DNA of 64,000 bases. Origin: Trichoplax adhaerens. Lineage: Eukaryota; Animalia; Placozoa. Under the pieces are notes generated by a model, which saw nothing but the letters and a program-made list of their open reading frames with translations, was not told where the DNA came from and did not search any database. Positions 5,792 to 64,000 of this stretch are shown piece after piece. The position numbers and the translations under genes were made by a program. The first letter of the stretch is position 1. Every line of letters begins with the position of its first letter. Location of the stretch: contig NW_002060960.1 of NCBI RefSeq assembly GCF_000150275.1, forward strand, positions 1,114,562 through 1,178,561, in the 5' to 3' direction.

Positions 5792-6342
5792 TGTAATGTA
5801 ACTAGTATTGTGATTGTAGACTGTTAGCCATGTGTAGTATAATGTACGGTAGACATTTATCCTAAGAGATATTTGGTAGCTATAACTATAGATTGTAGTG
5901 GTAGAGACTCTATGCTAGAGTACAGATGATTATATACAGTAAGGTGTTGAGTTACTAATAAGGCTATAGGTAAAAATAGAACTGTAAATCATATATTAGG
6001 ATATGGTTAAGTCATTGTACTTTGGCTGGTGTGAATAATGTCTACATAAGTACTGTAGTCGTATCCGTATTGGATTAATGATGGTCCGCAGTAGAATAGT
6101 CTTACTAAGAATAATTTAACTATGTGTAAAATAAAGTAAAAGGTTGCCATGCGGATTGTAGCTGCGAATGCTACAGAAAGTATAAAAGCATGCAACTTTA
6201 GATTATTCTGTTAGTTCGTTCTAGAAATCTTTAGTAGTAGTATTCGGCTAGAGTATAGCAGTGTGTAGTTAGTCTTTGTATAAGATTCAATAAAGCCCTT
6301 ATTTTTCTAAAATTTGAAATTTCGTGATTGGTATATATCGCA
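5792..6342 (+). mobile_element. Solo LTR of the Gypsy element at 53393-54982
   Basis: Starts TGTAATGTAAC and ends TATATCGCA, flanked by a 5-bp direct repeat GTAAT (5787-5791 and 6343-6347). Near-identical inverted copy at 53393-53945 next to an RT/RNase H ORF. Confidence 0.9.
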
Positions 6343-27626: not shown

Positions 27627-28329
27627 AGAAACTAGCCAGAAAAATCGGTAAGATCTATAATAGTGCACGTAAACGATAATATAATGTCTTAATCCGTACA
27701 TCACGTCTGCTTACGACTTTAGAAACAAGTTTAGAAACCACAAAATTAGGTACGATTTTCAAAGCGGCGTTTTCGTCTGACATTTTGACTTGCAGTGAAG
27801 TAGAGCTCTAACGCAAGAACGATCAATAAAGCGACATTGTAATTGCATAACTGCATTTATAAAATCACATTTAGCCGGCACATTCTTCTGTTGCAATACC
27901 TTAGAGAAAGTGTAACTTACTCTTTCTTACATTTACCTGACAGATCCACTAAGGGACATTTTATGCATTGTAATAAATTGTACTTATAAATTATATTGAA
28001 ATGCTGTCGGGTAAAATCTCTACGGAATTTATGTTAATATAGTACTTTTTCCTGAAACAGTTATTTTGAAATGTGCTATGACATTCTAGACCCCTGATAG
28101 GCTGGCTATCACTTAAAAATTGTAAAATCAAAAACAGGGGGTCGTAGGTAATAGTATAGATTCAAGCCAGCATTGATTTATTTTATGCAAAGCAATTAAA
28201 TAAGATACAGCCTTAAATGTTCTATCCAACTGTAAAATAACAGTGATTTTAGACTACTGGCCACGTTTGATATGATATATGCAAGTGTCGTATCTATATT
28301 TATCTGATGATATATTTAATAGCCCATAA

Positions 28330-28682
28330 TTAAAGACTGTAACAGTAGAATTTATGCTAGAATACAGATGGCTATAAACAGTAAGATGTTGAACTACTAA
28401 TAACGTTAGAAGTAGAAATAGAACTGTAAATCATACATTAGGATATGGTTAGTACATTGTACTGTACTTCGAGTGGTAGGAATAATGTCTACGTAAATAT
28501 TGTAACTGTTTCCATATTGGATTAACGATGGTTTGCTTTAAAATAGTGTTCATAAAAACAACTTGATTATGTGTAAAATAAGATAAAATGTTGCCATGTT
28601 GAATGTAGCTGTGAAGGCTATAGAGAGTATACTCGTATAAACAGGCGGCATTAGATTACCTGATTGTTCTTTCTAGAAATCT
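28330..28682 (+). mobile_element. Diverged partial copy of the 5792-6342 LTR family
   Basis: Shares AAATAGAACTGTAAATCATA.ATTAGGATATGGTTA and other blocks with 5890-6230. Confidence 0.75.
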
Positions 28683-30197: not shown

Positions 30198-31646
30198 TGT
30201 AATGAAATGAAATGTGTAGAGATCAAGCTACGAAACTTTAACAAACTTTGATTCTACTTTCGTTGCACTCCGGTCGACTTAACGCTAATACTTTGACACC
30301 AAATAAAATTTGGGGAAATAACCGAACAACAATTTATTTCAAAACAAAAATGGAGAGAAGTATAAACCGAACAACCGCACAAATACTTAGCTTTAAGTAT
30401 TATTAAAATAAATGACAGACTTAAAAACTGTCAACGACCAAACAACCTTTCAAAAACAACAATGTTTTAACTTACGACAATTCGACCCCGAAGGCCTTTT
30501 AAATTCAACAAGTTCTTCAAATAAAATCTTCTTCTACTCTCCCTCTAAATTTTCTAATTGCACTATCATTTATTGGCTTCGTAGAGCCGTCAGAGGTATT
30601 TAAAACTAAACATTTGCTAACCAATCGCTCTTAAGATCCGTTTTAGAAAACTACTTTGCACCATTTAAGAAAACAAAAATCATTCAAAGTTCAGACACAA
30701 TTTACCCTACGATTCCCTTACAAAACACTATAAAAGTAACAAGCTAACTATAAAAATACATCAAACTTCATTTCTAACATAATTTCTATCATTAATACAC
30801 TATAAAAGTCTAAAAATCAACCTTTAAACATCAAGATTTAGTCATAAAAACAACATTCTAACTACCTAACAATCAACACAACCTCTACCAATTTCCATCT
30901 TATTTTCTATTTTCCTCACTAAATCTCCTAATGTGACTTCAAGTCACGTCATAAAATTCCAAAGTTTCAAATTCATAACAAAAAGTCCAAATCTCAAAAA
31001 TCAACTCTTACGATATTTTTCATGAACAAAAATCCAAAAATTAAAACAGAAAAATTATAATTCAGACATAAAATAAACCCGACCGGTTCCAAAACAGGAA
31101 AATTATATCGGACACAAACCCGACCGGTCCCAGAATCCGGAAACTATATCGGACACAAATCCGGAAAAATTTGCTTTTTATGAAGATCATAGTAATCGCT
31201 TATCAAAAAAAATTTATATGACTACTACGACTACTTTTCTGACACATTAGTATCGCTTAGTATTCGCGAGTATTGACAGTTGATGTTTTAGCGTCAGATT
31301 GTACTGTAACTGTACGAGTATAGACTACATTACAGTACTTTATCGTCATGTTATAAATCCCCTTTCTCTAAGGATAGGGTTTTGCTACTAAGTCAAATTC
31401 TTTTACAATTTGAATAGACGATGAAACGCCCTTTCTTTAGATTAGGCATTTGCTCTATAGGGCTACTTCTATGGTAATCTATATAATACCTTGTAAAATA
31501 ATGAAGAAGAAAAGATGGCGACAAGATGATTTGGCAGGGTAAAACTTAAAGACACTATCACTTTCTAGGTATTTTCTATAGTAAAATAATACTAATTACA
31601 TACTAAAAAAACTACAAAGGACCCTACTTTTAGTCCTTTTACTACA
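30198..31646. mobile_element. Large (~1.45 kb) solo-LTR-like element
   Basis: TGTAA...CTACA termini, 4-bp flanking repeat GTTA (30194-30197 and 31647-31650). The right half recurs inverted at 62389-63123 with the same end. Internal ~41-bp tandem repeat at 31075-31168. Confidence 0.7.
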
Positions 31647-31859: not shown

Positions 31860-33100
31860 TAATAAGAAATACCCTGATCTGTCTAGTTCTATTTAAATGT
31901 ATTAACCCTTAAAGAAGGGCTAAACATATTAGCCAATGTTGTGTTGTGGTACCAAAAATCTGGCTTTGATATTATGCCAACATTTAATCTTAAGGCACCA
32001 ATCCATGCATACCAAAAATTAATTAATCGTACTGAAAATGGAAGGGGATAATAGTAAAATTTCTTTGTAAATTAATTCCTGATTGCAGATTGAAAATTTA
32101 ACGTCAATAACTGGCAATGGTAGAGTTAAAAATTTCTAGATCTAAATTTATATTTCATACACTATTAGTATACTTGATAGATGACATAAAAATAACACAC
32201 CTGAGATTTAGTTGTCATCTGTACTCTAGCATAGAGTCTATACCACTACAGCCTATAATTATGGCTACCAAATATCTCTTAGGATAAATATAGAAGTTAC
32301 GCTACCGCACATTATACTAAACATTGCTAACAGTCTGCAATCACAATACTAAGTTACATTAGAATGATATAGGTGAGTAGAAATGGCATACTTTCCTAAT
32401 AAATAGCCTAGCTATTACTAAAATCCTGTCAAAGTATTGTATCTTAAACATTTAATTTCTGCTCCCTTCTTGCCTAACAGTATGAAAGATTTACAGCATC
32501 AAAGTAACGATATTTAACATTAGAATATGCCACTTCGCTTCACTCATAACGATTTAAGAATGTCATCCTACGAACAGAGATTGCAAATAATCAAGTCCAC
32601 GCTTGTCAAATCATAAAGTTACTTTTTGTCCTTTCAGTAACCTAGTATTTGTAAATAAAATTGTAACCAAGTGCATTAGTATTACCCAAACACCATCTAA
32701 TTAAGACTGTAATCTTCACAAAGTTCTCTTGTAATTGTTTTTATACAGATAAATAAATCTAGAAACCGTTATAATCTATGGCCCATTTTGTATCCTTGAC
32801 CTTTCTCACCACATATTATTGTCTTATTGAATGAAATTGTAATTTCTTAATGTTAAAATGGTAATGTTATTATCGTCATCTCGCTTTTCTACTAAATCTA
32901 TCAAAACCATTAATCATAATAATCAAATTTTGACCAAAATGGAACGTACTTTAATTATTGCAAGTAACTTTTCCCAAATACTTTTAGCACTCAAGTTATG
33001 TGCCGAACCTATTGAAATTACAGTTAAAAGCATAAGTCTATTTAGGTAAACTACATCTTGCATCACAGCCGTCTAATTACTCTGTCTTCGATTTTAAACA
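31860..33100 (-). pseudogene. Degenerate fragment paralogous to the LRR exons of the 6438-14120 gene
   Basis: 31860-32210 aligns by eye to 11750-12090 (AAATCTGGCTTT.ATA..ATGCCAACATTTAA plus intron sequence). CCTATTGAAATTA is shared at ~33008 and ~13482. Interrupted by an LTR fragment. Confidence 0.6.
32214..32361 (-). mobile_element. Fragment of the 5792-6342 LTR family
   Basis: GTCATCTGTACTCTAGCATAGAGTCTATACCACTACAG...CAATCACAATACTA matches 53806-53940. Confidence 0.85.
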
Positions 33101-34921
33101 AGTATTTTCGTTTCACTTACACGTAGTAGAATGGATATAACAGGAGAATAGTATTGTAATGAGTCAATTATTATTGAAGAGAAAATCTCCTTATTCGGTG
33201 TTTTACACGTCTATATTTGCTATCCAGCTCAATTTAAATTTTATTCTAAAATAAAATTAAAAATGAATAAGACAATGGAAAGGATAGAGTTTAATTGCCT
33301 TCTACTCGTGCCACAAGTAGCCTCTAATATTTCACTAGAATGTGTTGATTAAATGTAGTGCGAAACTTTTCTATGTTAGCTTGTGAAAGCAAGTCGTTAG
33401 TCATTATAGTTTAAATTTTCATCTACTAATAATAAATAAAAGCTAGTCTTTCATCATTGTAGATTAAAACTCTATCGTTAAGAGTGTAGTCTAATTTTGC
33501 ACATTAATTATTAAAGTTTCAGTGTATTCCATACGTAGTTCATAGTTATAATTACTAAAAAATATCATGGGACACGTTAAAATTGTTTCTATTCTATATT
33601 AATTCTGTTCCTTTTATTTTCATGACGTTAGCATTAATCTCTATAAAAACTCTCAAACACTTAAAATGCTTTCTCGCCATTCCTAGTGATCTCACTAGGA
33701 TGCAAAGTCCGCTACTAACCGACGGTAAAATTTAAATCAATATTGTTCATTTTGGCTATGCATTATGTGGCCGTACAGCACAAGGTTTCGGCTTCAATCG
33801 TATCCTGAAAATTCATCAAGACTTTTAGTTATAATATGGAATCCTGCAGCGTACAAACTACCGTACTCAAGAAAGATGTGTTTGTAGTATCATCAATCCA
33901 GTTTATACCTAATGTTTCTCTTATTTCCTTCTAGACATTGAGTATTAACTAATTTTAATGTTGTACCCACCTGTAGGATACAATTCATCTATTTTCCGTC
34001 ATCCATTTGCATAATCATAAATCGATTTGACATTAGTATTCCGCTCATGTTGTCCTATACACAGATCAATCTTCCTTAATGCTGTAGGATAAAACAGATT
34101 TATTTCACATATTGTTTACACCATGGTACATTCCCTGGGTACTGAACAGATTACTGTATTCGCTTCGTATTAGACACAGATTAGTGCATTGAAAAGTGTG
34201 CTGTGTACTGATCAATCTTATTTTCTTAATGCTTGAAGGGCAAAAGGAATAGTGTATCACGGTAACATTTTTGAATTTTGCATACGCGTATATTATTCAG
34301 TAACCATTTATTTTTTAGGGTAAAATCATGAACTACAGTATATTAATAGACTATCCTTGCAAAGCTGTGCTGCGATCAGCCAAGTTTTACCCGCTATTTG
34401 CTCTCATTTAGTTAACTGCCAAAGCAGAAACGATTCATAAAAAAAAAAAGCGTTGTAAACGTCAAAAAAGAGTAACTGATATACTGTAAGTGATTAACCG
34501 TCATGATAACTTTTTCGATACATCACAGGTATAGTAAAATCATTCATTGGTAGATAATTATGTTCACAATCATTAACTCAACTTCGTTGAGGTCAATATA
34601 ACGGCTTCTAGTTATAAAACTGCAATCGTATTGATCGCCATCTTCGATGTTGTCGATGTAGTCGATGTAAATAGCATCACCCACGAATTGTTCTTTCAAA
34701 GCTTTGCTTCCACTCATAATACAATTGGCAATGGTGTATAAGTTCAATATTTCGTTAATAAACACTTTTTATTACTGTTACTTTAGCAATTACAACCTCA
34801 TACAGTACAACAATAAACCTTGGGATTGGATTTTCATTATCTAGTTGCATGCATGTAATCGTCTATCATGAATGAGCAAAATAAAATAAATAAAAATGAT
34901 CGTGTCTCTCTTACTAAACTA

Positions 34922-35175
34922 TAAAAGGCTACAAAATGTTTCTATTCTCCTCTTGTAGAACACTTTTTAACTCATTAGTTTGTTATTACTCTTGAATTGT
35001 AATAGAAACAGCTAAATTCTCATTCTCTCGATCGGCTACCAACTCATACAGCCAATTAGCATCGTAATCAAAGGCCTCGTCAATGCCATGGCACTGCTTC
35101 ACTATTTTCTATCGGTACTTTGCAAGAGTTAATAACGCAATGACATTAAGTTTCGGCAGCAAGCTATGGACCTAG
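34922..35175 (+). repeat. Dispersed ~250-bp repeat, copy 1 (copy 2 at ~50254-50512)
   Basis: AAAAGGCTACAAAATG...CGGTACTTTGCAAGAGTTAATAA...AGCTATG is shared in the same orientation. Confidence 0.8.
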
Positions 35176-36348: not shown

Positions 36349-39300
36349 CTACGTGTTACTTAGTTTCCTTTTGGTTCCCTTTTCATTTTCCCTTTCCGCA
36401 TTTTCTAAGATTTCTATCACTGGCGAATTAATGGTAGATAGAACCTCACAAAATGCATCAAATGCTCGATTACCACGTTCCGGTAAAATATCCAACAATT
36501 TCTCCATTTTCCTGTGATAATAATTGTCACAGTTTATATTATCTACATGATAGATTTTTACAACTAAGCTATATCATCGTATCGTATTGCGGACTTACTC
36601 ATAATCGGTATGCTGACATACAATGATTTCCTTTAGATAAAGTGTTAGAATTTCTCGACTGTATAAGTGATTACAAATAGGCTTCACACTTGATTTACAT
36701 TCCTCAATAATTTTGACGTAGTGGCTGCGTAAGATTTGTTTATGTATTTCCAACATTCCAACTCCGCTGATCTTATATTTTGGTATAGTTGACGCTGAAG
36801 TAAATAATCAAAAAATATTTAAGTTAATTATTTGTCGCTTGTTGAAATAGTATAAGATATTCATATTTTCCTTATAGGAGCTACGATTATAATTTTCAAA
36901 GAATAACTCAAGTTAGTCCATAGACATATTGGCAACTTTGCCTAACTAACCACGATCTTCCTCAGTTAACGGCATGGGAGTGTCCTGTCCGTTATCGCTA
37001 GAAGCATCGACTGTTAAATCCAAGAGATAAAGAATTATTATTAAACCAATTTATAAGGTTATAGATTTCATTTAATAAATTAATGAGTTCGATCCGCCGT
37101 ACAATAAAGTACATACTTTTTAAAAAATTTTACTGAATATTTTGTCTATTGTCATTACAGTTATTTTAGTTAGTAAATTTATGACAACATCGTTTCAAAT
37201 GTATGAGCGCTATTATTGATAACTTATCGATTGAATTAGAAATTAAAGTTGAAATATTATTAAAGCAATTTGTTACTGTTTAATAGATCAATAAAATTGG
37301 TTATTCATGAGAGTTCCAATTAAGCCTACTGTATATACTGATACATTTCATAAAGGAATAATCAGCTACAAAAGATTCGAAAGACAGCACCGTATTTGTG
37401 GTATCACCTGCAATATTATCTAACCAAAACTTTAATTGGTTCGAGGAAAACCAAACATATTGACATTTAGGGCAATCCAGAAGTGATTTATCATCACTTA
37501 AGTCATCTTCGATATTTACTAACTCTCCACAACGCGGACACTTAACACTCACTTTTATTCGTATGTGACTCATATTTGGCATCCATTTAGTAAGAACGAT
37601 TCTTAAAGCTGATTCAATTACATCCTTAACATTGAGCTCAACGGCTGTTTTAGCTTGTAAACTTCGGTGTCGATAAACTAATTGTAAGCCTATGACCGTT
37701 GATAACTTATCGATAATCAAATTAATACCAGGACTAATTCGAAATGAAGCGCAGTTTTGATATAGTTGAACTCTGCTATTATTCCATCCACGCTTCTGCA
37801 AACATTGAGAAATCAAGCAGTAAAAGATATTATAAGAAATATAGGGTAACTCCTTCTCATCAAACCCTAAATAGATGTATTTCGATGTGGTGCTATTCGA
37901 TGGATATAATGCATTACTCTTAGGTCGTGTCTTTAGCAGACAAGGAATAAGATAGATACGATCTTTTCCTTGTAATTCACTTGCTTCACAAAGAATATCG
38001 TAGTGAGTCATAAGAGACAATACGTATTTTCTTTCTTCATCGTCTAAATTAAATTTGCTCCAAACGTGTCGAATGTATTCTTCGCTTATTTTGCCTGTAT
38101 TCTGAATCTTCTCGTAGTCACACCAGTCATCAGCATGAGAAGACTTGAAAAATGAAATTCGAATTAATGAACAAAACACCTCAATTAGCCAATCAATATC
38201 CGATACGACCCAATTACTCAGAATCTCGTCTTTATCGCAATAGACGATTTGTCCGATACTATGCAAGTAAGATAATAAACTATCTAACTTCTCGCCTTGC
38301 TTAGATAGATGATGTTTGTCTATCAAGTCTTTAACTTGTGTTTTAGTCAGTAACTTCTTTATTGTTTTATCTTCTCTTTCTCCACGAAGTATTTGAATGA
38401 TTTCATACCATCGAACTGGAATAGGATTCGTTATAAATGGTAATTTTTCTGCAATTGTTGTAAAGATTTGACATAACTGTTTACGTGTCTCGTCTCTTAG
38501 ACGTTGAGTTGCTTCGCTGTTATCGTTGCCATCACCATTCATAGCTAAGTGTGATAAGTATAGATGTTTGGAAAAGGCCTTATGGCCAAATTCACGTGAT
38601 ATCTTGTTATAAGCTGCTTGTATTTTTCTATTTTTTTCTTTTTCATTATTAGCTACAATCTTATCTGCATGACTACCGATGACAATGACAATAGGCAATT
38701 CATAATTTTTACCATCGATCGTAATCTCATTTCTAACATTACCCTCTAAACCATCGCTTAACCTCTTGCATCCATGTACAGATGATAACCATTCATGCAT
38801 TCTTGCATAGTAGGTTATATCTGATTTTGAGTTGTTCCTTTGTTGTATAGCGTCATTAATCTCTTCAGCGATATTAAATACAAGAACATAAATACTATCA
38901 CACGACATAAATGGTTGATGTGTAACGTGATATTCTGCCTGATCTCCGAAGTCGCACAATACAGCATGTAGATTGTCTATTTTTGACTGCTGTGATTTAT
39001 TACATTCATTACTATCTGTATTTGCCTTTTGTATCTCAGAAAGTTTCGGTATAAGTTTGTTATACTTGCTGCGAAGTGATTCATCGAATACATTCGTTCT
39101 TTGCGATTTCATATTGGATAAGGTCTGTCTTGTAACTTGTAAAGATGGCGATTGAAAAACTGCTAACCCAACTTTACTATCAGCGAGAGTGCCCAATCCA
39201 GTCTTCACCATATCACCAGTATCGAATGTAATCAATTCTATTAGCGGATAATTACCACTAGCTACTTGTGTTGGTGCTTCATTAGCCAATAGTGACTGCT

Positions 39301-42300
39301 TAATTAGCACTTTGAGTAAAGTTGTTTTACCTACATTTTCTGGTCCGATAATCATAATTCTTATAAGATTGTTCTTACATTTTCCTTCTTGTAATGCGCA
39401 AATGAAATCGCGAAAATAATTCAGTCCAACTGTGTTACGAAACGAGAGTTAATATGGAGGATGAAATTCACAAAATTTGTTTTCAAATTAAAAAATTATA
39501 CAGTATGTACTGATTTTCATTTCAACTATATCTTGCATATTGTGCAATCTTTAACAAATTATGATAAATTATCATACAGGAGCTGATAAATACTGTTTTG
39601 TCAAATATTTTCGCAATAGCATTTATTCAACAACTTATTACACTTTATTATAGTATATTTAAAGTTAACCAGACATGACTACATTAATTAAACTGATTTC
39701 TCTATAATTCTAACAACAATATCCTAAATTAATGCTATAAACACAAAAGATAGAATATACTATGATTAAAAACTGTATATCTTTTTTGCTATATGATGAA
39801 ATCTAAACGAGTTTTCACACAATATTATATACATCTTTACTATTTTCGATCGTCAAATCTTTTATTATACATGCTATACTATGAGTATTTAACTAAATGT
39901 AAATGTGATAATATACAGTAAGAAAAAAATACAGTACGTACAATAGTCTATTTAATAATGTCATTGTATATTTAATATACCAATACAACGATACTTACCT
40001 CCTGCAATATTCGTATGATGTGTATGATTGATATGGAATTATGCGATGATAGAATAATAGAGTTTATATAGTATTGACGTATAGTAAGACACAAGTAGAG
40101 AAGAGTAGAGTAGTAATGGTAATTTGTATTGAATGACGATTGAATGGCGATTTAGTGTATAAGCATTGCAGTGTATTGGTGGTTTTAGTATACGTATATC
40201 CGTATAATAACCATACGATAATCATTCCATTCGATCATTGCATATATGTACATATCCATTCCATAGTAAATCGCATTGTCGATCCCATAGTAAATCCAAT
40301 AACATTAAACATGCTATACTACAACTTATTATAATTATCGTACAAGTATTATTCTAATCATACACAATAACAAATATACAGTACGTACAATAGTCTATTT
40401 AATAATGTCATTGTATATTTGATATACAATTATATTAATACTTACAATCTGTACAATTGATATAGAATTATACGATGATAGAATAATAGAATTTATATAG
40501 TATTGACGTATAGTAAGAGTGAGATAGAAGAGTAGAGTAGTAATGATAATTTGTATTGCATGGCGATTTAGTGTATAAGCATTGCAGTGTATTGGTGGTT
40601 TTAGTATACGTATATCCGTATAATAACAATACGATAATCATCGCAGTCGATCATTGCATATATGTACATATCCGTTCCATAGTAAATCGCATTGCCGATC
40701 CCATAAAATAATCCAAGTTAATACACTAAAATAATATTAATCCTCATACAGCAAACATGCTATGCTACAACTTACTATAATTATCGTAGAAGTATTATTG
40801 GGATCATACATACTGACAAATATATAGCCCGTACAATAGTCTATTTAATAATATCATTGTGTATTTTATACACCAATACAACGATACTTACAATCTGTAT
40901 GATTAAAAAAAAATAATGTGATTATAAAAAAATAAAGTTTATACAACATTGACGTATAGTAAAAGAGAAGTAGAGAAGAGTAGAGTAGTAATGGTAATTT
41001 GTATTGAATGACGATTGCATGGCGATTAAGTGTATAAGCATTGCAGTGTATTGTTAGTTTTAGTATATGTATATCCGTACAGTAACAATGAAAAATCATT
41101 GCATTCCATCATAGCATACATGTACATTTCCATTCCACAGTAAATCGTATTGTCGATTTCATAGTAAATCCAACAGTAAACCATATATGTTTGTTAATAA
41201 AACAAAATAAAACAATCCAAGTTAATATACTAAAATAATATTAATCCTTCTACATTAAACATACTATACTACAATTTATTATAACTATCGTACAAGTAAT
41301 ATTGTAATCATACACAATAACAAATATACAGTACGTACAATAGTCTATTTATTGATATCATTGTGTATTTAATATACGAATACAACGATACCTACCCCCT
41401 GCAATATTCGTATGATGTGTATGATTGATATGGAAATATTCGATAATAGAATAATAGAGTTTATACATTATTGACGTACAGTAAGATAAAAGTAGAGTAA
41501 TAAAGGTACATTGTAATCAATGGCGATTTAGTGCATTAGTAGTTTAAGTATACGTATATCCGTATATTAACCATACGATATTATTGAATTCGATCATTAC
41601 ATATATGTACATATCCGTTCCATAGTAAATCCAGTAGTAAACCATATATGTATATTAAAACAATAACATAAAATAATCACAATTAATACACTAAAATAAT
41701 ATTAATCCTCCTACATTAAACATGCTATACTACAACTTATTATAATTATCGTACAAGTATTATTCTAATCATACACAATAACAAATATACAGTAAGTACA
41801 ATAGCCTACGTAATAATATAATTGCATATTTAATATGCGAATTAACAATACTTACGCCCTGTAATATTCGTATGATGTGTATGATTGATATGGAATTATG
41901 CGACGATAGAATAATAGAGTTTATATAGTATTGACGTATAATAAGACAAAAGTAGAGAAGAGTAGAGTAGTAATGGTAATTTGTATTGAATGACGATTGA
42001 ATGGCGATTTAGTGTATAAGCATTGAGGTGTATTGGTAGTTTTAGTATACGTATATTCATATAATAACCATACGATAATCATTCCATTCGATCATTGTAT
42101 ATATGTACATACCCGTTCCATAGTAAATCGCATTGTCGATCCCATAGTAAATCCAATAATAAACCATATATGTATATTAATATAATAACGTAAGAAAATT
42201 CATATTAATACGCAAAAGTAATATTAATCCTCCAACATTAAACATGCTATACTTCAATTATAATTACCGTACAAATAATATTGTAATCATAAACAATAAT

Positions 42301-44614
42301 ACATAAACAGTATGTAAAACAGTCTATTTGATAATAATAAATATACAGTACGTACAATAGCCTATTAAATACTGTCATTCTATATTTAATATACCAATAT
42401 AGCGATACTTACGCCCTGTAATATTCGTACAATGTGTAAGATTGATATGGAATTATGCGATGATAGAATAAAAGAGTTTATATAGTATTGACGTATAGTA
42501 AGACACAAGTAGAGAAGAGTAGAGTAGTAATGGTTGATTGTAGTAAATGACGATTGAACGGCGTTTTAGTGTATTGGTGATTTTAGTATACGTATATTCG
42601 TAAAATAACCATACGATAATCATTCCATTCGATCATTGCATATATGTACATATCCATTCCATAGTAAATCGAATTGTCGATCCCATAGTAAATCCAGTAG
42701 TAAACCATAGATGTATAATAACATAAAATAATCATAATTAAAAATAAAATAATATTAATCCTCCTACATTAAACATGCTATACTATAATTATAAGTATCG
42801 TACAAGTATTATTGTAATCATACACAATAAAAAATATACAGTACGTACAATAGTCTATTTAATAATGTCATTGTATATTTAATATACCAATATAACGATA
42901 CTTACGATCTGTTGATTAATATGGAATTATGCGACGATAGAATAATACAGTTTATATAGTATTGACGTATAGTAAGAAAGAAGTGGAAAAGAGAACAGTA
43001 GTAATGGTAAATTGTATTGAATGACGATTGAATGGCGATTTAGTGTATAAGCATTGCAGTGTATTGGTGGTTTAGTATACGCATATCCGTATAATAACCA
43101 TACGATAATCATTCCATTCGATCATTGCATATATGTACATATCCATTACATAGTTAGTCACATTGTCGATCCCATAGTAAATCCAGTAGTAAACCATATA
43201 TGTATGTAAATACAATAACATAAAATAATCATAATTTATACACTAAAATAATATTAATCTTCTAATATTAAACATGCTGTACTACAACTTATTATGATTA
43301 TCGTACAAGTATAATTGTAATCATACACAATAACAAATGTACAGTACGTACAATAGTCTATTTAATAATGTCATAGTATATTTAATATGCGAATAAAATA
43401 ATACTTACAATCTGTATTAATCATACGGAATAATGCAATGATAGAATAATACAGTTTATATAGTATTGACGTATAGTATGACACAAGTAGAGAAGAGTAG
43501 GGTAGTAATGGTTATTTATATTGAATAACGATGGAATGGCGATTTAGTGTATAAGCATTGCAGTGTATTGGTGGTTTTAGTATACGTATATCCGTATAAT
43601 AACCATACGATAATCATTCCATTTGATCATTGCATATATGTACATATCCATTCCATAGTAAATCGCATTGTCGATCCCATAGTAAATCCAATAGTAAACC
43701 ATATATGTATAAAAATACGATAACATAAATAATTCATGTTAATGCGCAAAAGTAATATTAATCCTCGTACATTAAACATACTATACTGCAATTATAATTA
43801 TCATACAAGTATTATTCTAATCATACACAATAACAAATATACAGTACGTACAATAGTCTATTTAATAATGTCATTGTATATTTATTATACCAATACAACG
43901 ATACTTACAGTCTGTAATATTCGTATGATGTGTATGATTGATATGGAATTATGCGATGATAGAATAATACAGTTTATATAGTATTGACGTATAGTAAGAC
44001 ACAAGTAGAGAAGAGTAGAGTAGTAATGGTAATTTGTATTGAATGACGATTGAATGGCGATTTAGTGTATAAGCATTGCAGTGTATTGGTAGTTTTAGTA
44101 TACGTATATCCGTATAATAACCATACGATAATCATTCCATTCGATCATTGCATATATGTACATATCCATTCCATAGGAAATAGGATTGTCGTTCCAATAG
44201 AAAATCATATATATATCAATCAAATCATATAGATTATTTTATTAAACAGAGTAAATGTAATAATGAACGAAAGTAATAATTATTTTACAATTTGCTGTTT
44301 GTAACTGTACCCGGATCATTGGCCGCATCATGTAAAATCCAACCGAATTTTTGTACTTTAAGATCTGGTTGCAAACATAATAAATTGCAAAAGGAAGTCA
44401 TGTTCGTTTTATCTTTTTTCTTGGACTTTAACAAACTGCACAGTGTTCTGTTTTTTTGTTGTCGAGATGACTTTGAATTGATTAATTTGTACTCCTCCTC
44501 TGATATTAAATTCTCATTCTTGATATCAGTTAACAACTCTTCTATAGGTAAATGATCGCAGAGATGATTTTCATAAATTCGTAAAGCGTTGTCAATATAA
44601 TTCCATCCTTCCAT
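36349..44614 (-). CDS. ROCO-family protein: CARD-like death fold, linker, ROC GTPase, COR with terminal CxxC..CxxC, C-terminal CARD
   Basis: Exon 44614 to ~44289/44311 is CARD-like (LPIEELLTDIKNENLISEEEY...KNRTLCSLL). The large exon ~39429-37408 has GPENVGKT, CDFGDQAEYHVTHQPFM, GSHAD and COR motifs (IPVRW, LSYLHSIGQIVY, YLIPCLL). Three further exons (~37010-36950, 36795-36598, 36511-36349) encode a CARD ending KLLDILPERGNRAFDAFCEVL, stop at 36349-36351. Confidence 0.9.
39920..44230 (-). repeat. Intronic tandem array of nine ~450-560 bp units, each with a candidate 3-nt microexon
   Basis: Recurrent unit sequence (ATACAGTACGTACAATAGTCTATTTAATAATG...). Each unit has minus-strand CAG-NNN-GTA(A/G)GTAT with NNN at 43909-11 ACT, 43409-11 ATT, 42906-08 ATC, 42413-15 GGC, 41856-58 GGC, 41396-98 GGG, 40892-94 ATT, 40446-48 ATT, 39999-40001 GAG. 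Confidence 0.9.
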
Positions 44615-45071
44615 TATTTCCAATCAGCCTGTGTGGAGCGTCAATAATATGGCTATATTTAGTTTTAGCTGTTTCGGTTTTTCATTTTTCTCTAACACAG
44701 TATTACGTGCAGTAGACAATACTGTAGCAGTGATAAGCTATCACATCACTTTCAATACAATCCTATCACTCGATTTCATTTCTACTGTAATGTATAAGTA
44801 ACAACAGATTGTTGTACTCCATCTTGACTTTAACGACTTCAATTTATAGTTTAGTAGTCAAACATAGACTCATTGTCGGTATACAAGAAGGATTTACAAC
44901 GTTGCAACATGGAATAATGTGCGAGTATTTCAACATGTCATTGATATACTCGTAAAGCGATTGTTGATGTATTGTAATAGTCAGTTATAGTCTATTTTTC
45001 ATCGTCCAAGTAGGAGTTTATTCTCTCTTGTACACGGTATAAAGTTACTGAACCTCTGACAGGTCTATCAA

Positions 45072-45945
45072 ATGGTAATACTATCTATTAAATGAGCACA
45101 TTATCGTAAACCGTCAGCAAAGCGACGGGAGTTTGTACTAGTCAGATATTAACTGTCTTGGTACAGCTAATTTCTACAGTATATTAGGTATTAATTGTCT
45201 TACTACAGTTCATTTACCTCTCTATTGTTGTCAAGATGAAATGTTATGTTGTTTTGTATGTGTACGTATTCCACCCACCCACCCATCCTAGAAACGAGCA
45301 GCGCGGGGGTATTTATACTACTGTTAGATGACTGTGATTATGGGTTCATTTCAATAGGTCAGTATAAGATTTTTGCAGTACTTTTTAGCTCTAAGGTAGT
45401 CATTTCTGCAGAGTACTGATTATTAAAATAGTATTCGTTATGTCGGTAAGGGTGGCCACTGGGCCTTTCAAGTTTGATTTGATGTAATATTCTGATGAAA
45501 ATTGAATAAACATACAATCTTTATAGAGTTTTCTACGCAGCCATTTTGATTGTTACATTTTCTTATAACGGTTGCTATCGATAGAGCAAGCTTTGCTTGC
45601 ATACTCAAGCGATCCTTAGAGTCATTATAATGATTGGTACAGAATTGACCACAGTACTAAGGACATTGTACCGCACTGTAGATATCTTACAGTACCTGCT
45701 AATCTTAACTTGGTATGTCCATCACCATACATTAGTTATCATAATGTGCTTTGGACCATTAACTATTCTTAATATAGCATTTCATCCGTGAATGCATTAT
45801 TGAAAAGTAGTATTCTACAAGCATTGCTGTGAATATAGTAATGCCTGGCTATTACCGGAATATAGGTAATACTATCTGTTAATTATTAACAAATAAGTAC
45901 ATTATCGTAAACCGTCAGCAAAGCGATGTGAGTTTGTACTAGTAG
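45072..45945 (+). repeat. Two copies of a ~70-bp repeat (45072-45143 and 45865-45943) upstream of the ROCO gene
   Basis: GGTAATACTATCT...CATTATCGTAAACCGTCAGCAAAGCGA.G.GAGTTTGTACTAGT occurs twice. Confidence 0.75.
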
Positions 45946-46689
45946 TCATTAAAGACACCGTGTAATGTAACTCACTGACGTTATTAACTGTAACTATATA
46001 TGAGTATCATATTCATAACATAATCATTATTGACGTAAAAAGACAATCGCTACACGCAGATATTTACATCTACAGTAAAAATATTCCATGACCATGTAAA
46101 ATTAGTTAATCGAATCAGCTACACAATAGTTACTTAATTCTGATTGTGGGTACCGAACTAATTAGGCATTGTTCGAAAATAGTTTTAAAGTATACCGTAC
46201 AAACATGACATCGTCAAAGTTTTATTATATTTCTTTCTCTCTCCGTTTATATGAACGGGGAATTCTCACTAGTAGGATGAATGGAAGAAATAGGCATCAT
46301 CATTTTTAAAACTACAGGTATGGTTTGTTACTAGATGTCATCATGCAATTTCATATTACTGTATTATAAACACAAGTGAGTCAAGGACTATCAGTCAATA
46401 ATAACCTGTAGCGCAGCAAGGATATTTTGCACGCAGCTTGAAGACAACACGCGTCAATTCGGTACGAGTGAAAATTGGGACAATCACCTGCATAGCCGTT
46501 ACTAAATATGGATTAGACAGTAAATCTAATTTGGACAATCTGTTGATGGAGTATGTGAAGGAAATGCTCTATTCTGTACACTCATTGCTCATTCACTCAA
46601 TTGATGGAGGCTAACTACCTGTAAGAGTATCATTGAGTTGAGCGATCTGTGAATGGTGTATTGATCTGATCAATGATGGGCTTATCAGA

Positions 46690-49600
46690 CTGATTGGAGT
46701 TGATGGCCAGTGGATATCGGTGGTGATGTCACTGGTTGAAGTAGCGGATAGTCGATCAACGATGGGATGGATTCCTCTACTGGCTATTGGCTAAGCAGGA
46801 GAAAGGCTGAAAAGGAAAGGGGAAAAAACTGCAGCAAGGCCCGTCAAGATAGCGCAATCAACTGAGAGCAATGTTGGCTACGTTCTCCAAACTAACTATA
46901 CGGCACGTTTCTGCAGCTGGTTGGCATGGGCATAGTAGACAGTATAGTGTACCGCGTCAGACATGCAATCCACTCGAAATGACTCAAGAATCAGCCTGCA
47001 CATCATTAGTATTACAGATGATCGTCTCTACCAGTCTACCTAATGCGATTACAGTCGTGAAGAAGGACGGACATCTTGTTTAATGACTACAGTACTAGAA
47101 TTGATTGACCAGGCCCTTCTCCAGTTCTCCTACTTGTTGCAATCATGTCCTTCGAGTAATTATTATTCCATTTGAAAATAGGAAAATGGAATAATAATAA
47201 ATTAATATAACGTTCTCTTCTATTGCATTGGAAGCGCGACACAGTGACAGGATTACATTGATTTGGAGACGACGGTGTGCAATAGAGACCCTTAACAACC
47301 CTTACAGACTAACGGTCTCTAGTGTACTGTACAATGTTGCGTATTGGCAGTGGTTACCATATTCAGTTAGTCACTGCCGTAATAGCAGGGCGAGCTTTCT
47401 TCAACGTTTTACTTCAACTATCTTTTAAACTACTGTAAGTACCAGCATACAGTTTAGAAGGCAAGAAATGGGCCTAGTTACTTTGTTGATAGCCTGCCTG
47501 CCTGTTATCCAATACTCCGCTACGATATATGATATTTTGTTGAAGATTGCAATGATGCAGGAAAGATGCAAATTATGCTATAGAATGCAGCAACTTATTT
47601 CACCCGTTTTTTTACCCTTCAAAAATGAAAAAAAGAGTCGTTTCCTTCTAGCATAGAACCACTGATTACTTCATCATTACCTTGTTCTTACTCTCCAAAC
47701 GTGATATAAACAGTAAAATTTTTATAATGTATAACTCATTGAGGTAATTAATAATGGAGTAGGGTAAAACCTAGTCAATGCAATAGCACTCTTTCACTAT
47801 TTTGAATCCAACCTTGCAAGAGTCAATATATAATACAACAATTGGTTTTCATAGGTACATGATCCGTTATGATGATCATCTCCACTTACCAGGTTAATTG
47901 GAGTTGATGGCAAGTGGATATCGGTGCTGATGTTCCTAGTTGAAATAGAGAATACGATAACGGTGCTTGGAGCGTACACAATCCTCTAATCGTAGCGGAT
48001 CGTTGATGAAAGATGAGATTGAGAAAAGGGATGAAGAAAACTCCAGCAAGGCCCGCCAACTGAGAAGAATGTTGCCAATGTTCTTCTGTACAGATGCTAT
48101 CAGTAGTCTACAGTAGGTCATCCAAAGTGGTGTACAATACACTATGCTACACTCCACGCTAATAACGCTTGCAGTGGTTGGTGTTTTGGCGCCCAGCGAC
48201 TACTGGCGAGTAGCGAGTCGGTAAATCACTTTCAGTACTAAGTAAGGGTTAGACGATCCATTTTGCCGCTGATTCGACTCTATCAATGCAAGCGTATATC
48301 ATACTGCTCGAAAGCAACTTAGCAATGCGAAGAGGCGGTCCGTTTCTACGGATCGGAAGGAATATCTCAATTTTATTGGTTACTTCTTTCCATTGTGTGA
48401 ATGGAAAGAAGTAACCAATAAAATTGAGTGAAAGGAAAGAAGTAACCAATGAAATTGAGATATTTCTTCCGATCCGTAGATGATCCATGCGCACCGCCTC
48501 TTCGCATAACGCCCTTCACTTAGCAGCACGTTCTCTTCCATTATTACATAGGAACTTTTGGAAGCGTGACACAGTGACAAGATTGCATTGCCTTGGAGAC
48601 GATGGTGTGCAATATTGCGCATTAGCAGTGGTTACCATGGTCACTGCTTTAGTAGCAGGGTGGGTTTTCTTCAATGTTTTACTTCAAGTAAAATTGAACG
48701 ACGTAAAGTACTCGTTTTCGCCTACTATAGATACCAACAGACAGTGTAGAAGGTAACAAATGGATCTAGTTACTTTGTTGATAGACTGCCGGTTATAATT
48801 GTTATCCAATATTCCGATACGAGTATCTGAACGATGTTGACTGCAAAGTTTGCAGAGAGAGTAGTTGCTTCTTAGTCTTAATCCGTTCATTCGATTGGAG
48901 AGTCAACGGATGTATCCTCTGCCATTTTCTTTCTCAGTCATCCATTTACAGATGGTCTTGCGTTGATCGCAGGCATGATTACCAATCAACAAAGTCAACT
49001 ATTGCCCTATTTTGGACTCAAACTTACGCATACATTTCATATCAGCGTATAGGCATGATAGAGCGCTGATCTCATTTATCCACATCGATAACCTGACGAC
49101 TTGTAATGTGAACCGCATTTTTGCACTTTACCATTCTCAAATCCAATAAAGGATAGCATTGCAACATTCCGTAATCATGCTTTGTTGTATTTAATTGTCA
49201 GCAATCGCATACTCTTGGTTTCCTTGCTAGATTAATTATAAATTACATGATACTTGAACTGAAACCAACGTATCCAAAACAAAATGCTATTTTGTTCAAG
49301 ATTGTAATGATGTAGTAATCGAGATGGAAATTGTGCTATGGAATGCAGAAACTTACTTCACATGTTTTGTTTTAACGTACGCGTCTTACTTTATTTATTT
49401 GTTTAACGTACGCAGGTAAGAAATTAAAATAGAGGAGTCGTTTTCTCCTACAATAGAACCACTCACTAGCCAATGTTCCTTCTCTGAATACTGTACCATC
49501 GACAATATTCTTATCAATATTAATATCCAGTACAAAATGATATTTTCTTCAAGATCGTAATGATGTAGTCAAGATGGAAATTGTGCTATGGAATGCTATA

Positions 49601-49930: not shown

Positions 49931-50253
49931 AGATCATTTGCTTCGTTTTAGACACAAATCAATACAAAATCTGCAGTATATTGACTGCTTGAATTTGACT
50001 GGGATGACAAGAAGCATCCACTCTGCTGCTCTATTTTCCACTCAATGTTAGTATACACCCTGTATATGCGCACGAGGACAGACAGGATACAACACTGGTC
50101 TCATTTATCTAGATCCATCACATGATGACTTGTACAGGAGAAGCTCTACTGACCCTTAATCCTCAATGGCTAAAACTCTGTCATAGTTTACTTTAATCTT
50201 CGATTAAGCTATCATGCTAACTTTTTGTTTAAAGATTTCTCTTATTGAACTTG

Positions 50254-50512
50254 AAAAGGCTACAAAATGCCCTATTCTCCTCTTCTAGAACACTTTTAAC
50301 TTATTACTCCATCATTACTTTGTTATTACACTTGAATTGTGATAGAAACAGTCAATTTCTCATTCTGTAGATTGGTTACCAACTCATACAGGCAATTAAT
50401 ATAGTAATCAAAGACTTGGTTGATTCAATAGCACCCTTTCAATATTTTCAATCGGTACTTTGCAAGAGTTAATAATACAATGACATCAAATTTTGCCAGC
50501 TAGCTATGTACC
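50254..50512 (+). repeat. Dispersed ~250-bp repeat, copy 2
   Basis: Aligns by eye to 34922-35175. Confidence 0.8.
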
Positions 50513-50645
50513 TGCGGTTCAATATGGCAGAAAGGGTTACATTAACACGGTTTGCATGTTTATTCCATTTAGTCATTTTCATAGATGGGAAAATGTGACA
50601 GTGAATGTGGCGATCACTACCCACTTTACCCGGTGAAGGTTTAAG

Positions 50646-53392: not shown

Positions 53393-54982
53393 TGTGATAT
53401 ATACCAATCACGAAATTCCAAATTTTAATAAAATAAGGGCTTTATTGGATCTTATACAAAGATTAACTACACACAGCTCTTCTCTAGCCGAATACTACTT
53501 CTAAAGACTTCTACAACGAACTAACAGAATAATCTAAAGTTGCATGCTTTTATACTTTCCGTAGCATTCGCAGCTACAATCCGCATGGCAACCTTTTACC
53601 TTTTTTTACACATAGTTAAATTATTCTTAGTAAGACTATTCTACTGCGGACCATCATTAATCCGATATGGATACGACAACAGTACTTACGTAGACATTAT
53701 TCACACCAGCCAAAGTACGATGAATTAACCATATCCTAACATATGATTTACAGTTCTATTTTTACCTATAGCCTTATTAGTAACTCAACACCTTACTGTA
53801 TATAGTCATCTGCACTCTAGCATAGAGTCTATACCACTACAGTCTATAGTTATGGCTACCAAATATCTCATAGGATAAATATCTACCGTACATTATTATA
53901 CTAAACATGGCTAACAGTCTACAATCACAATACTAGTTACGTTACTTTCGTCCGTCTAGAATTTTGTACCAATACAAAATTCTACAAACTAACAAGCTTA
54001 CAAAAGTTTTCCCGGCACGCTGGTCAAATAATCAATTATCCATTACTAGTCTAGATAATACGTCTGCATTGCCATTACTTTTACCCGGTCTATGTCTAAT
54101 ATTAACCTTAAACTGCGACAAAAACATAGACCAACGCATTAACCGCTGGTTATCGTTACACATATGAGCAAGCCATATTAGCGGCTTATGGTCAGTTTGT
54201 AAAACAAACACTCGACCATCTAAGTAAATGTAGAACAATTTTACAGCGTAAACAACAGCTAAACACTCTTTTTCAATTACCGTGTAATTGATTTCAGCTT
54301 GCTTCAGTTTTCGGCTAGCAAATATTACGGGCCTTTCTTCGCCTTTTTCATCCAATTGAAACAATACGGCTCCACGACCAACTTCGGAGGCGTCCGTTTG
54401 CAGGATGAATTTCTTATCCGGCTCTATAATTTTCAAAGTCGGACCACTTGCTAATTTCTCCTTTAATTTCTGGAAGCTTTCTTCACATTGTTCGGTCCAT
54501 TTCACTTCATTCGGCTTTGCCTTCTTAGTCAATTCTACCAATGGCGCAGTCCATTCGGTATATTCTTTTATGAATTTCCTATAATAGCCAACAGCTCCAA
54601 GATATGAACGTACTTCTTTCTTCGTAGTTGGCGTCTTGAATTTTATTATGGCTCTAACATGTACATCTATAGGCGCTATTCGTCCATTTCCAATCGTGTG
54701 TCCCAAATATGACACAGTGTTGCTTGCGAAATTGCGCTTTTCTTCTATAACACTTAATCCAAATTGTCGCAATCGATCGAATACCAGTTCCCAGGTGCTG
54801 CAAATGTTCTTTCCAATTTGCACTATAGACGATAGTGTCATCCAAGTAGACACTAGCAACTCCCTGTAAATCTTTTAGCACTGCATTCATCAAACGCTGG
54901 AACGTAGCTGGAGCACAGTGTAATCCAAACGGCATACTAAACATGGCAAACAGTCTACAATCACAATACTAGTTACATTACA
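53393..54982 (-). mobile_element. Internally deleted Ty3/Gypsy LTR retrotransposon (Gmr1-like arrangement)
   Basis: TG...CA ends with 5-bp TSD CGGGG (53388-53392 and 54983-54987). ~50 nt of 5' LTR is fused to RT. Full 3' LTR at 53393-53945. Confidence 0.9.
54032..54944 (-). pseudogene. pol: Partial pol: RT C-terminal half and RNase H, frameshifted near 54790
   Basis: MPFGLHCAPATFQRLM, YLDD, YLGH, TDAS, EKECLAVV, TDHKPL and NADVLSR are split over two ORFs (54654-54944 and 54032-54859). Confidence 0.92.
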
Positions 54983-57900: not shown

Positions 57901-58067
57901 TACACTCAAGTATCAGTATACAAACAAAAAATTATTGGATCAGTCATTGAATCTCCATCAAAATATGATTTATAATTTCAAGTGCTTTATTTGATCTTTC
58001 TAACTTTAACTTTCCTAAGCAAACTGACATTGTTGTAGTTACTAGGCTAAATAACTTCTATTACAAT

Positions 58068-58525
58068 TATTAAAAGCTAAATATTTCCGTATCCATATCT
58101 AATGTCAAATGACTTGCAACATGTTGGATCTGTCATTAAAATTATTAGTAACTGTTATTAAAAACTAGAAATTTTGGTATCCATATCAAGTATCATAATA
58201 CATGCGCTTTGTTAGATATATCGTTAACGTTTTAAGTTATTAATAAACTATTATTAAAAGCTAAAAACTTCGGAATCCATATCAAGAGTCAGAAAGTATA
58301 CACCTTATTAGATCTGTCTTAGCATTATAAGTTATTAATAAACTATCAATAAAACTAAAAAAGTTGGTATCCATGCTAAGTGGCAGAAGACTTACTTCTT
58401 ATTGAATCTATCATTAGCGTTGTAAGTTGTTAATAAACTACCATTAAAAGTTACAACTTCGGTATCTACATCAAGCGTCGAAAAACTTTCAGCTTATTGG
58501 ATCTCGTGTCAATGTTGTAAAATAA
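58068..58525 (-). repeat. Five ~90-95 bp tandem units, each with a candidate 12-nt microexon
   Basis: Unit ATTAAAAGCTAAAAACTTCGG.ATCCATATCAAG...TTATTAGATCTGTC repeats with periods 88, 96, 94 and 95. Confidence 0.75.
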
Positions 58526-62388: not shown

Positions 62389-63123
62389 TGTAGTAAAAGG
62401 ACTAAAAGTAGAGTCCTTTGTAGTTTTTAGTATGTAATTAGTATTATTTTACTATAGAAAATACCTAGAAAGTGATAGTGTCTTTAAGTTTTACCCTGCC
62501 AAATCATCATGTCGCCATCTTTTCTTCTTCATTATTTTGCAAGGTATTATATAGATTACTATAGAAGTAGCCCTATAGAGCAAATGCCTAATCTAAAGAA
62601 AGGGCGTTTCATCGTCTATTCAAATTGTAAAGAAATTTGACTTAGTAGCAAAACCCTATCCTTAGAGAAAGGGGATTTATAACATGACGATAAAGTACTG
62701 TAATGTAGTCTATACTCGTACAGTTACAGTACAATCTGACGCTAAAACATCAACTGTCAATACTCGCGAATACTAAGCGATACTAATGTCAGAAAAGTAG
62801 TCGTAGTAGTCATATAAATTTTTTTTGATAAGCGATTACTGTGATCTTCATAAAAAGCGAATTTTTCCGGATTTGTGTCCGATATAGTTTTCGGATTCTG
62901 GGACCGGTCGGGTTTGTGTCCGATATAATTTTCCTGTTTTGGAACCGGTCGGGTTTATTTTATGTCTGAATTATAATTTTTCTGTTTTAATTTTTGGATT
63001 TTTGTTCATGAAAAATATCGTAAGAGTTGATTTTGAGATTTGGACTTTTTGTTATGAATTTGAAACTTTGGAATTTTATGACGTGACTTGAAGTCACATT
63101 AGGAGATTTAGTGAGGAAAATGA
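62389..63123. mobile_element. Inverted near-identical copy of the 30198-31646 element, cut by the assembly gap
   Basis: Reverse complement of ~30909-31646 with few differences. Confidence 0.9.
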
Positions 63124-63174: not shown

Positions 63175-64000
63175 ATACAGTACGTACAATAGTCTATTTA
63201 TTGATATCATTGTGTATTTAATATACGAATACAACGATACTTACCCCCTGCAATATTCGTATGATGTGTATGATTGATATGGAAATATTCGATAATAGAA
63301 TAATAGAGTTTATACATTATTGACGTACAGTAAGATAAAAGTAGAGTAATAAAGGTACATTGTAATCAATGGCGATTTAGTGCATTAGTAGTTTAAGTAT
63401 ACGTATATCCGTATATTAACCATACGATATTATTGAATTCGATCATTACATATATGTACATATCCGTTCCATAGTAAATCCAGTAGTAAACCATATATGT
63501 ATATTAAAACAATAACATAAAATAATCATAATTAATACACTAAAATAATATTAATCCTCCTACATTAAACATGCTATACTACAACTTATTATAATTACTG
63601 TACAAGTATTATTCTAATCATACACAATAACAAATATACAGTAAGTACAATAGCCTACGTAATAATATAATTGCATATTTAATATGCGAATTAACAATAC
63701 TTACGCCCTGTAATATTCGTATGATGTGTATGATTGATATGGAATTATGCGACGATAGAATAATACAGTTTATATAGTATTGACGTATAATAAGACACAA
63801 GTAGAGAAGAGTAGAGTAGTAAAGGTAATTTGTATTGAATGACGATTGAATGGCGATTTAGTGTATAAGCATTGCATAATATTGGTAGTTTTAGTATACG
63901 TATATTCGTATAATAACCATACGATAATCATTCCATTCGATCATTGTATATATGTGCATACCCGTTCCATAGTAAATCGCATTGTCGATCCCATAGTAAA
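63175..64000 (-). repeat. Second copy of the ROCO microexon repeat array (two units visible)
   Basis: Near-identical to ~41326-42150. CAG-GGG-GTAAGT at 63245-63247 and CAG-GGC-GTAAGT at 63705-63707. Confidence 0.9.

Follow-up and report, generated by a model that had tools for sequence, protein, structure and literature searches.

What lies at this locus?

The window, by which we mean the whole 64-kb stretch of DNA analysed here, holds on its minus strand a Trichoplax gene in which a CARD exon is followed by nine repeat units of 402-557 nt, then by a ROC-COR exon, and finally by small exons of which the last encodes a second CARD (Table 1). Pfam matches the first CARD (E 6e-8), Roc (E 1e-7) and COR-A (E 3e-16), with ROC followed by COR in the encoded protein, as is a feature of ROCO proteins, and in a protein search the open reading frame at 37301-39448 (minus strand) matches TRIADDRAFT_60922 with 99% identity, with relatives also existing in H2. 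At its 3' end each unit carries a yAG, then three bases, then a GTAAGT donor (GTAGGT in one unit), and it is these three bases that we regard as exons of a single codon's length. The CARD donor and the ROC acceptor are both phase 1, so that the frame is kept with any number of 3-nt exons in between; the microexons being in phase 1 as well, each codon straddles a junction, its first base coming from the end of one exon and its other two from the start of the following one. The protein as a whole exceeds 900 amino acids, to which the microexons contribute just the linker between CARD and ROC. Trichoplax is reported to have at least 17 ROCO genes, some with a CARD, in a description whose available part makes no mention of microexons (PMC4104024). 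The separate copy of units 5-6 near the end of the window could be a piece of another allele, or else belong to a longer array in which it has not been placed.

Table 1. Features of the CARD-ROCO gene and its microexon array (offsets such as -184 are counted from the acceptor)
Feature	Position	Strand	Basis
CARD-coding exon, phase-1 donor	44311..44628	-	Pfam CARD; RNA joints at both ends
Intron I1, 399 nt; AG-free 44294-43914 (381 nt)	43912..44310	-	AG scan, shuffles
I1 branch-point candidates near 5' edge of zone: YTRAY at -331, -309, -305; in homologous units about -270 to -370	44212..44247	-	motif scan; use inferred
I1 mid-zone candidate branch points TACTAAA (-184) and CACTAAAT (-151)	44059..44100	-	conserved in 8/9 and 7/9 units
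I1 C/T-rich tract, 20/24 pyrimidines, -108 to -85	43996..44019	-	pyrimidine window scan
3-nt exon 1 (ACT)	43909..43911	-	yAG/GTAAGT; in X9 RNA chain
Intron I2, zone 350 nt	43412..43908	-	AG scan
3-nt exon 2 (ATT)	43409..43411	-	splice sites; RNA
Intron I3, zone 332 nt	42909..43408	-	AG scan
3-nt exon 3 (ATC)	42906..42908	-	splice sites; RNA
Intron I4, zone 343 nt	42416..42905	-	AG scan
3-nt exon 4 (GGC)	42413..42415	-	splice sites; RNA
Intron I5, zone 369 nt	41859..42412	-	AG scan
3-nt exon 5 (GGC)	41856..41858	-	splice sites; RNA
Intron I6, zone 290 nt	41399..41855	-	AG scan
3-nt exon 6 (GGG)	41396..41398	-	splice sites; RNA
Intron I7, zone 333 nt	40895..41395	-	AG scan
3-nt exon 7 (ATT)	40892..40894	-	splice sites; RNA (unspliced I8 after exon 7 in X5, X9)
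Intron I8, zone 275 nt	40449..40891	-	AG scan
3-nt exon 8 (ATT); no inclusion among RNA rows listed	40446..40448	-	splice sites
Intron I9, zone 310 nt (40313-40004)	40002..40445	-	AG scan
3-nt exon 9 (GAG); no inclusion seen in RNA; TGA after any T-ending exon	39999..40001	-	splice sites
Intron I10 into ROC exon; ordinary 3' end, zone 78 nt, TATTAAC at -20; internal control	39430..39998	-	AG and motif scan
ROC-COR exon (and zinc-ribbon-like), phase-1 acceptor; TRIADDRAFT_60922 starts inside	37408..39429	-	Pfam, protein match, RNA
Three small downstream exons, the last a second CARD	36349..37010	-	RNA joints in X4; Pfam CARD
Separate copy of units 5-6 by a 50-N gap; exons at 63707 and 63247; zone 290 nt (63539-63250); 98% identical to 41326-42151	63175..64000	-	self-comparison

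Are the 3-nt exons real?

The answer from RNA is yes. Seven of the 22 listed sequencing runs were examined (X1-X5, X9 and X14), the sample leaving out X6-X8, X10-X13 and X15-X22, among which X16-X18, X21 and X22 are small shares. X1-X3 behave as DNA, while X4, X5 and X9, from three studies, contain joints across introns and so behave as RNA; X14, one of the four runs in that RNA comparison, gave no exon joint. The most telling contig occurs in both X9 (depth 61) and X5 (depth 13, one base different), and consists of an I9-like intron end, a triplet absent from the window's array, window exons 1-7 in genomic order, and then unspliced I8, which aligns over 298 letters with no differences in X5 and one listed for the whole X9 record. 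At this same point the match also breaks off in an X4 contig that lies over I8 and exon 7. These joins between neighbours tell us that the 3-nt exons are real, as the original prediction held, and also that they are not mutually exclusive, so that the likeness it drew to such exons falls away. An array of the tropomyosin or Dscam type was rejected on the same grounds, with seven neighbours joined in X9 and X5 and 16 triplets strung together in X9.

It might be argued that the RNA chains derive from multi-codon genomic exons of paralogues that have lost introns, or from artefacts of the assembly graph, and that the exons of the window are normally skipped. The runs do come from other strains or paralogues, the DNA-like ones being from other samples than the RNA, with their joints known among those listed; the H2 gene model skips every microexon; and X5 holds a joint between CARD and ROC at the exact exon ends (39429/44311, with CT..AC ends) at a depth of 167, the letters in between not being known. 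We nevertheless hold this explanation to be very improbable, for the chain in X9 and X5 matches seven separate exons of the window in order and runs on into I8, the junction string is identical in two studies, four or more joined 3-nt exons occur nowhere in the window, and in DNA-like contigs exons 4 and 7 are each still flanked by their introns.

Other chain forms, which come from alleles or paralogues and whose loose letters were parsed by hand, point to variable inclusion. In X9 the 48 letters after the CARD exon can be read as 16 triplets, behind which come a donor and an intron, this chain being built from two contigs with a 30-letter overlap, of which 13 letters are visible in both; the same run also joins CARD to ROC through a single triplet. 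X4 contains two different stop-free strings, each with 10 triplets visible, before the ROC exon (their loose parts are 106 and 128 letters long, 30 shown), as well as three triplets between an acceptor and a donor. The direct CARD-ROC joint of X5 probably represents complete skipping, so that chain lengths across alleles and paralogues are one, at least ten, 16 and probably zero triplets, and no in-frame stop is present in any of the parsed RNA chains. Two kinds of splicing intermediate can be seen, one in which the chain grows from the CARD side and another in which microexons are already joined with the upstream intron retained. The extra triplet ahead of exon 1 may mean that the allele in question has a longer array, that units have been collapsed in this assembly (two more lie by the N gap at 63.2-64.0 kb), or that a back-splice took place. 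Read depths in the DNA-like runs are about 50-90 for unique array pieces, about 300-600 for ROC-exon contigs and thousands for the commonest unit; depth is no copy number, and the ratios are no more than suggestive of several copies of the gene and more than a hundred units.

One contig of X5 (39425-43909) joins an acceptor and an exon-1-type triplet to a ROC-like exon via 19 letters, which cannot be split cleanly into triplets plus the window's ROC start, and it probably derives from a paralogue with a different ROC 5' end.

How unusual are the AG-free intron ends?

Two minus-strand runs without AG, of 381 nt in I1 and 310 nt in I9, had been claimed from inspection of the DNA and proved exact to the base, and the seven further units, which had merely been judged similar, turned out to have zones of the same order (Table 1). 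All nine microexon acceptors are thus directly preceded by 275-381 nt without AG, where exons with an AG exclusion zone are recognised by at least 150 nt before a used acceptor, and exons 1-7 are seen in RNA. Together with a tenth at 63.2 kb, these zones take the first ten places when the AG-free runs of the minus strand are ranked by length, and the next run has 152 nt. Outside the array, no run in the 64-kb window reaches 275 nt, either among 3446 on the minus strand (maximum 152 nt) or among 3190 on the plus strand (maximum 200 nt).

Neither shuffled sequence nor the ordinary acceptors of the same gene show such a depletion. For each of the nine introns, a run as long arose in 0 of 5000 mononucleotide shuffles, whereas the 78-nt zone of I10 was equalled in 1712 of 5000. 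The controls for zone length were all AG spacings in the window and five ordinary acceptors of the same gene, whose zones of 22-103 nt are quite unlike those of the microexons. When the last 275 nt of the nine introns are pooled, AG occurs 0 times against 91 expected from composition, while GA (86 against 91) and CT (171 against 172) lie close to expectation, which makes the deficit specific to strand and dinucleotide; the G content of this region is low, at 11%. Upstream of the zones AGs reappear, with 52 found and 80 expected in the 5' parts of eight units. I10, which starts with the same repeat and ends at the ordinary ROC acceptor, has 27 AGs where 27 are expected.

Selection, or a copied AG-poor repeat?

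This is an important question, since the units are copies of one ancestor and the static deficit therefore comes close to a single event. Indeed, AG-poor repeats can yield long AG-free zones without any splicing role, as has been pointed out (PMC1431707), and one can imagine an ancestral unit that lacked AG by chance and was then copied as a minisatellite. The similarity of the units to their consensus (88-97% per 20 columns), their many copies in the DNA-like runs and the low G content would all be in keeping with such a history. However, the units have diverged, which opens the matter to test. The zone of eight units contains 141 distinct substitutions, among which the observed spectrum leads one to expect 13.9 that create an AG, and none is realised in its own unit; four do create an AG relative to the consensus, and fail to do so in their own unit owing to a different base next to them or to a change in the gapped context. 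Further 5' in these units, outside the zone, the numbers are as expected, with 9 AG-creating substitutions against 7.5, or 7 against 6.7 by a stricter count of net creation. In this test the consensus stands in place of the ancestor, the copies are linked by gene conversion and the 5' limit was set from the observed AGs, and within those terms it points to selection against AG in the zones. A neutral repeat is also at odds with the strand and dinucleotide specificity of the deficit, and with the fact that the zone always ends at the used acceptor, even in units that have lost bases at their 3' end and in I1 where its 5' part has diverged, so that we would give it very little credence.

Where is the branch point?

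The sequence data favour a distant branch point without choosing among the candidate sites, and lariats are not visible in assembled contigs. A branch-like CACTAAAT had been proposed about 150 nt upstream of the acceptor, and it is indeed found exactly in seven of the nine units, at -120 to -151, but the AG-free zone continues well upstream of it, leaving most of the deficit unexplained by this motif. A pyrimidine tract had been proposed at about 90-110 nt, and the best window (20-22 pyrimidines in 24) does lie at -63 to -108, though the 24-nt tract quoted is exact in just five of the nine units; it starts some 35-45 nt after CACTAAAT and does not adjoin it. A second conserved motif, TACTAAA, is present upstream of CACTAAAT in eight of nine units (-153 to -184). 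In the 119-194 nt that lie upstream of both ACTAAA motifs, there are 0 AGs against 7.6-10.3 expected per unit, and 65 substitutions with 0 realised AGs against 7.6 expected.

The other candidates lie at the 5' edge of the zone, where all nine units have a YTRAY placed between 15 nt upstream of the edge and 52 nt inside it, and within 15 nt either side in eight. These motifs, at about -270 to -370, are followed by 37-67% T over the next 30 nt, while the ACTAAA motifs sit mid-zone, with some 35-75 nt between them and the C/T tract. Since AT-rich DNA often contains YTRAY, such a cluster is partly to be expected, but it appears at least as good a candidate as CACTAAAT and TACTAAA. Our tentative first choice would be this 5'-edge cluster, with the ACTAAA pair as a somewhat less favoured possibility; use of both would be unlikely, and a proximal branch point more doubtful still. 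RNA folding of eight segments from four of the nine units (z from +0.7 to -2.1) lent no support to a hairpin that would bring the branch point near the acceptor.

One could also suppose that branching takes place at a weak nearer yTnAy, at -22 to -84, and that the zones exist for another reason, namely that the strong GTAAGT donor would define an exon with whatever AG lies in the 300 nt or so before it, and that such AGs are selected away. The length of the zones, 275-381 nt, does resemble an exon-definition span, and they do run far upstream of CACTAAAT. Weak yTnAy motifs occur at -65 to -84 in eight of nine units (and at -22 to -39 in two), and new YTRAY motifs appear to be tolerated, with 4 created against 5.4 expected and 4 against 3.3, which gives no sign of selection against new branch motifs. 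Against this, no unit of the nine has a canonical YTRAY between -10 and -118, whereas four of the five ordinary acceptors have one at -13 to -31, and the pyrimidine tract lies upstream of the weak motifs, which is the wrong order for a proximal site. We therefore consider a purge of cryptic acceptors without an obligatory distant branch point improbable.

How might a 3-nt exon be spliced?

Our preferred reading, to which we would assign a probability of roughly three in four, is that this array consists of tandem units of an intron plus one codon, that the 3-nt exons are spliced into RNA, and that the intron ends are likely kept AG-free for a distant branch point with use of the first AG. In other words, scanning from a distant branch point to the first AG is the likely mechanism, and the zones would be devoid of AG because, with such a branch point, whichever AG comes first downstream becomes the 3' splice site. 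The suggestion that the whole unit acts as a splicing module is borne out to this extent, that the unit of about 500 nt behaves as a duplicated splicing module and that its zones are related to splicing.

Judging from standard spliceosome footprints, an exon of 3 nt would be too small for the 3'-splice-site factors on the AG and U1 on GTAAGT to be accommodated together, and this lack of room may be why the branch point and pyrimidine tract are placed 120-370 nt upstream. From there, U2 and U2AF could pair with U1 across the span as they would over a normal exon. Step 1 would proceed without an AG, and step 2 would pick the first AG that follows. If a new AG arose along the way, it would create a long, frame-breaking exon and be purged, the purge itself being supported by the substitution test. 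Inclusion or skipping of exons would alter both the length and the residues of the linker, so that the spliceosome would be building a variable protein linker codon by codon.

Because linker codons are shared by two exons, the 512 subsets of the nine exons correspond to 192 peptides, 122 of them stop-free; these are calculated numbers and not isoforms per locus, and the RNA contigs mix paralogues and drop rare forms. All 195 subsets with a stop, again by calculation, place exon 9 after a T-ending exon. Inclusion of all nine exons is one such case, with its stop at the junction of exons 8 and 9, and this form would give a CARD-only product or be subject to decay. The acceptor of exon 9 (39999-40004, minus strand) is a NAGNAG whose distal AG abuts GTAAGT, which might offer a zero-length, ratchet-like option.

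How does the array compare with known systems?

The closest parallels are the distant-branch-point exons with AG exclusion zones, such as PTB exon 11 (380 nt) and GABBR1 exon 23 (287 nt), described by Gooding et al. 2006 (PMC1431707). As in those exons, a long AG-free zone runs up to an alternatively spliced acceptor without a strong proximal branch motif; unlike them, the units here are at least nine duplicated copies in a row, with 3-nt exons whose neighbours are spliced together, in a placozoan, and with a branch point that is a candidate from sequence. Drosophila exons that depend on eMIC are likewise reported to have long AG exclusion zones, together with UCUC-rich tracts and strong branch points (PMC8797185, bioRxiv 10.1101/2024.09.17.613571). 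The exons here resemble the eMIC/SRRM3/4 neural microexons of bilaterians in being very short and frame-preserving, and differ in being tandem duplicates. The UGC enrichment near the acceptor that marks eMIC/SRRM4 exons is absent, with UGC at -26 in one of nine units and two others just within the terminal TGCAG. The eMIC domain is reported by the same two sources to have arisen in bilaterian ancestors, a group to which Trichoplax does not belong.

In Schistosoma, the MEG families have runs of very short exons (3-81 bp), and alternative splicing is proposed to diversify their proteins (PMC10526429). The gene here also has runs of very short exons, and its tandem, frame-preserving microexons with variable inclusion are of the MEG type. 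The MEGs, however, are described as small secreted proteins made mostly of microexons, whereas in Trichoplax all the microexons are 3 nt, derive from one repeated unit and form the linker of a large CARD-ROC-COR-CARD protein. A MEG-type protein was rejected for this gene on its size and on the confinement of the microexons to the linker.

Plant microexons are single or paired, with signals about 50 nt away, unlike the array here, where zones are near 300 nt. The branch point of the 9-nt mini-exon of potato invertase is said to have been shifted upstream, in work attributed to Simpson in 2000. Plant microexons are also reported to have a U-rich upstream signal, and often to lose the downstream intron with the upstream one still detained (PMC8831610); the array here shares the U-rich signal, and the intermediate of X9 and X5 likewise has microexons joined and the upstream intron retained. 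Finally, brown-algal ROCO genes, proposed to be immune receptors, carry tandem 72-bp LRR exons (PMC11378527). Both are cases in which a ROCO has been diversified upstream of ROC by tandem symmetric exons, the difference being that the repeated exon is one codon here and a 24-residue LRR there.

What might it mean?

As far as the published accounts consulted go, the splicing logic is already known (PMC1431707), and what we did not find in print is a duplicated intron-plus-codon module in a ROCO gene. More broadly, our search of the main texts of mostly open literature returned no published report of one-codon (3-nt) exon arrays in placozoan nuclear genes or in ROCO genes. A protein database search revealed no protein with microexon-encoded residues, the single longer CARD relative (the H2 model) skipping the microexons, and a metagenome scan with the CARD exon gave one weak locus, at 40% over 40 residues.

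The array is a replicated natural experiment on the recognition of 3-base exons: it furnishes nine diverged copies from which one dinucleotide has been purged, a control intron of ordinary type within the gene itself, and splicing intermediates that can be seen, all in an animal outside the group said to own a dedicated microexon factor. One unit is, moreover, a ready-made minigene for asking whether a distant branch point is sufficient. There is also a practical point, which is that a hypervariable linker between CARD and ROC is missing from the public models of this ROCO family, TRIADDRAFT_60922 beginning inside the ROC exon and the H2 model skipping the array.

A wider and distinctly speculative idea, which we consider rather unlikely as a whole, is that of a codon-level combinatorial diversifier. 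A placozoan family of CARD-ROCO genes would have ten to several dozen one-codon exons, spliced as eMIC-free distant-branch-point modules, and would make more than 100 linkers per locus, which would differ from cell to cell or from one challenge to the next and serve as a primitive repertoire for recognition or death signalling. Since codons span the exon junctions, skipping would rewrite the linker peptide as well as shorten it. An immune or death-signalling role is our guess by analogy, from the domains and from what is described for the brown-algal ROCOs (PMC11378527).

What else is in the window?

Upstream of the CARD exon, at 46600-48800 (minus strand), there are duplicated blocks of 1.2-1.3 kb with short exons, and in X4 the CARD exon is joined to sequence that resembles the exon end at 47890 and not the one at 46625. 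The intron upstream of the CARD exon contains, at 45036-46127, a short dispersed repeat, probably a small transposon, whose depth in the DNA-like runs is very high and which has many loose ends there. An exon-like stretch at 34907-35173, the last exon in a gene model, has an 80% identical copy upstream of the gene at 50238-50513.

Further afield, a reverse-transcriptase RNase H remnant (Pfam) with LTR-like repeats lies at 53393-54981, with related pieces at 5793-6342, 28243-28682 and 32197-32365, and a 738-nt element is present twice in opposite orientation at 98% identity (30909-31646 and 62389-63121). Two genes bear kringles by Pfam (9358-10795, and 59153-61659 on the minus strand), with neighbours that look scavenger-receptor-like by eye, and at 58062-58412 there are four repeats of about 90 nt which, also by eye, resemble leucine-rich-repeat coding sequence.
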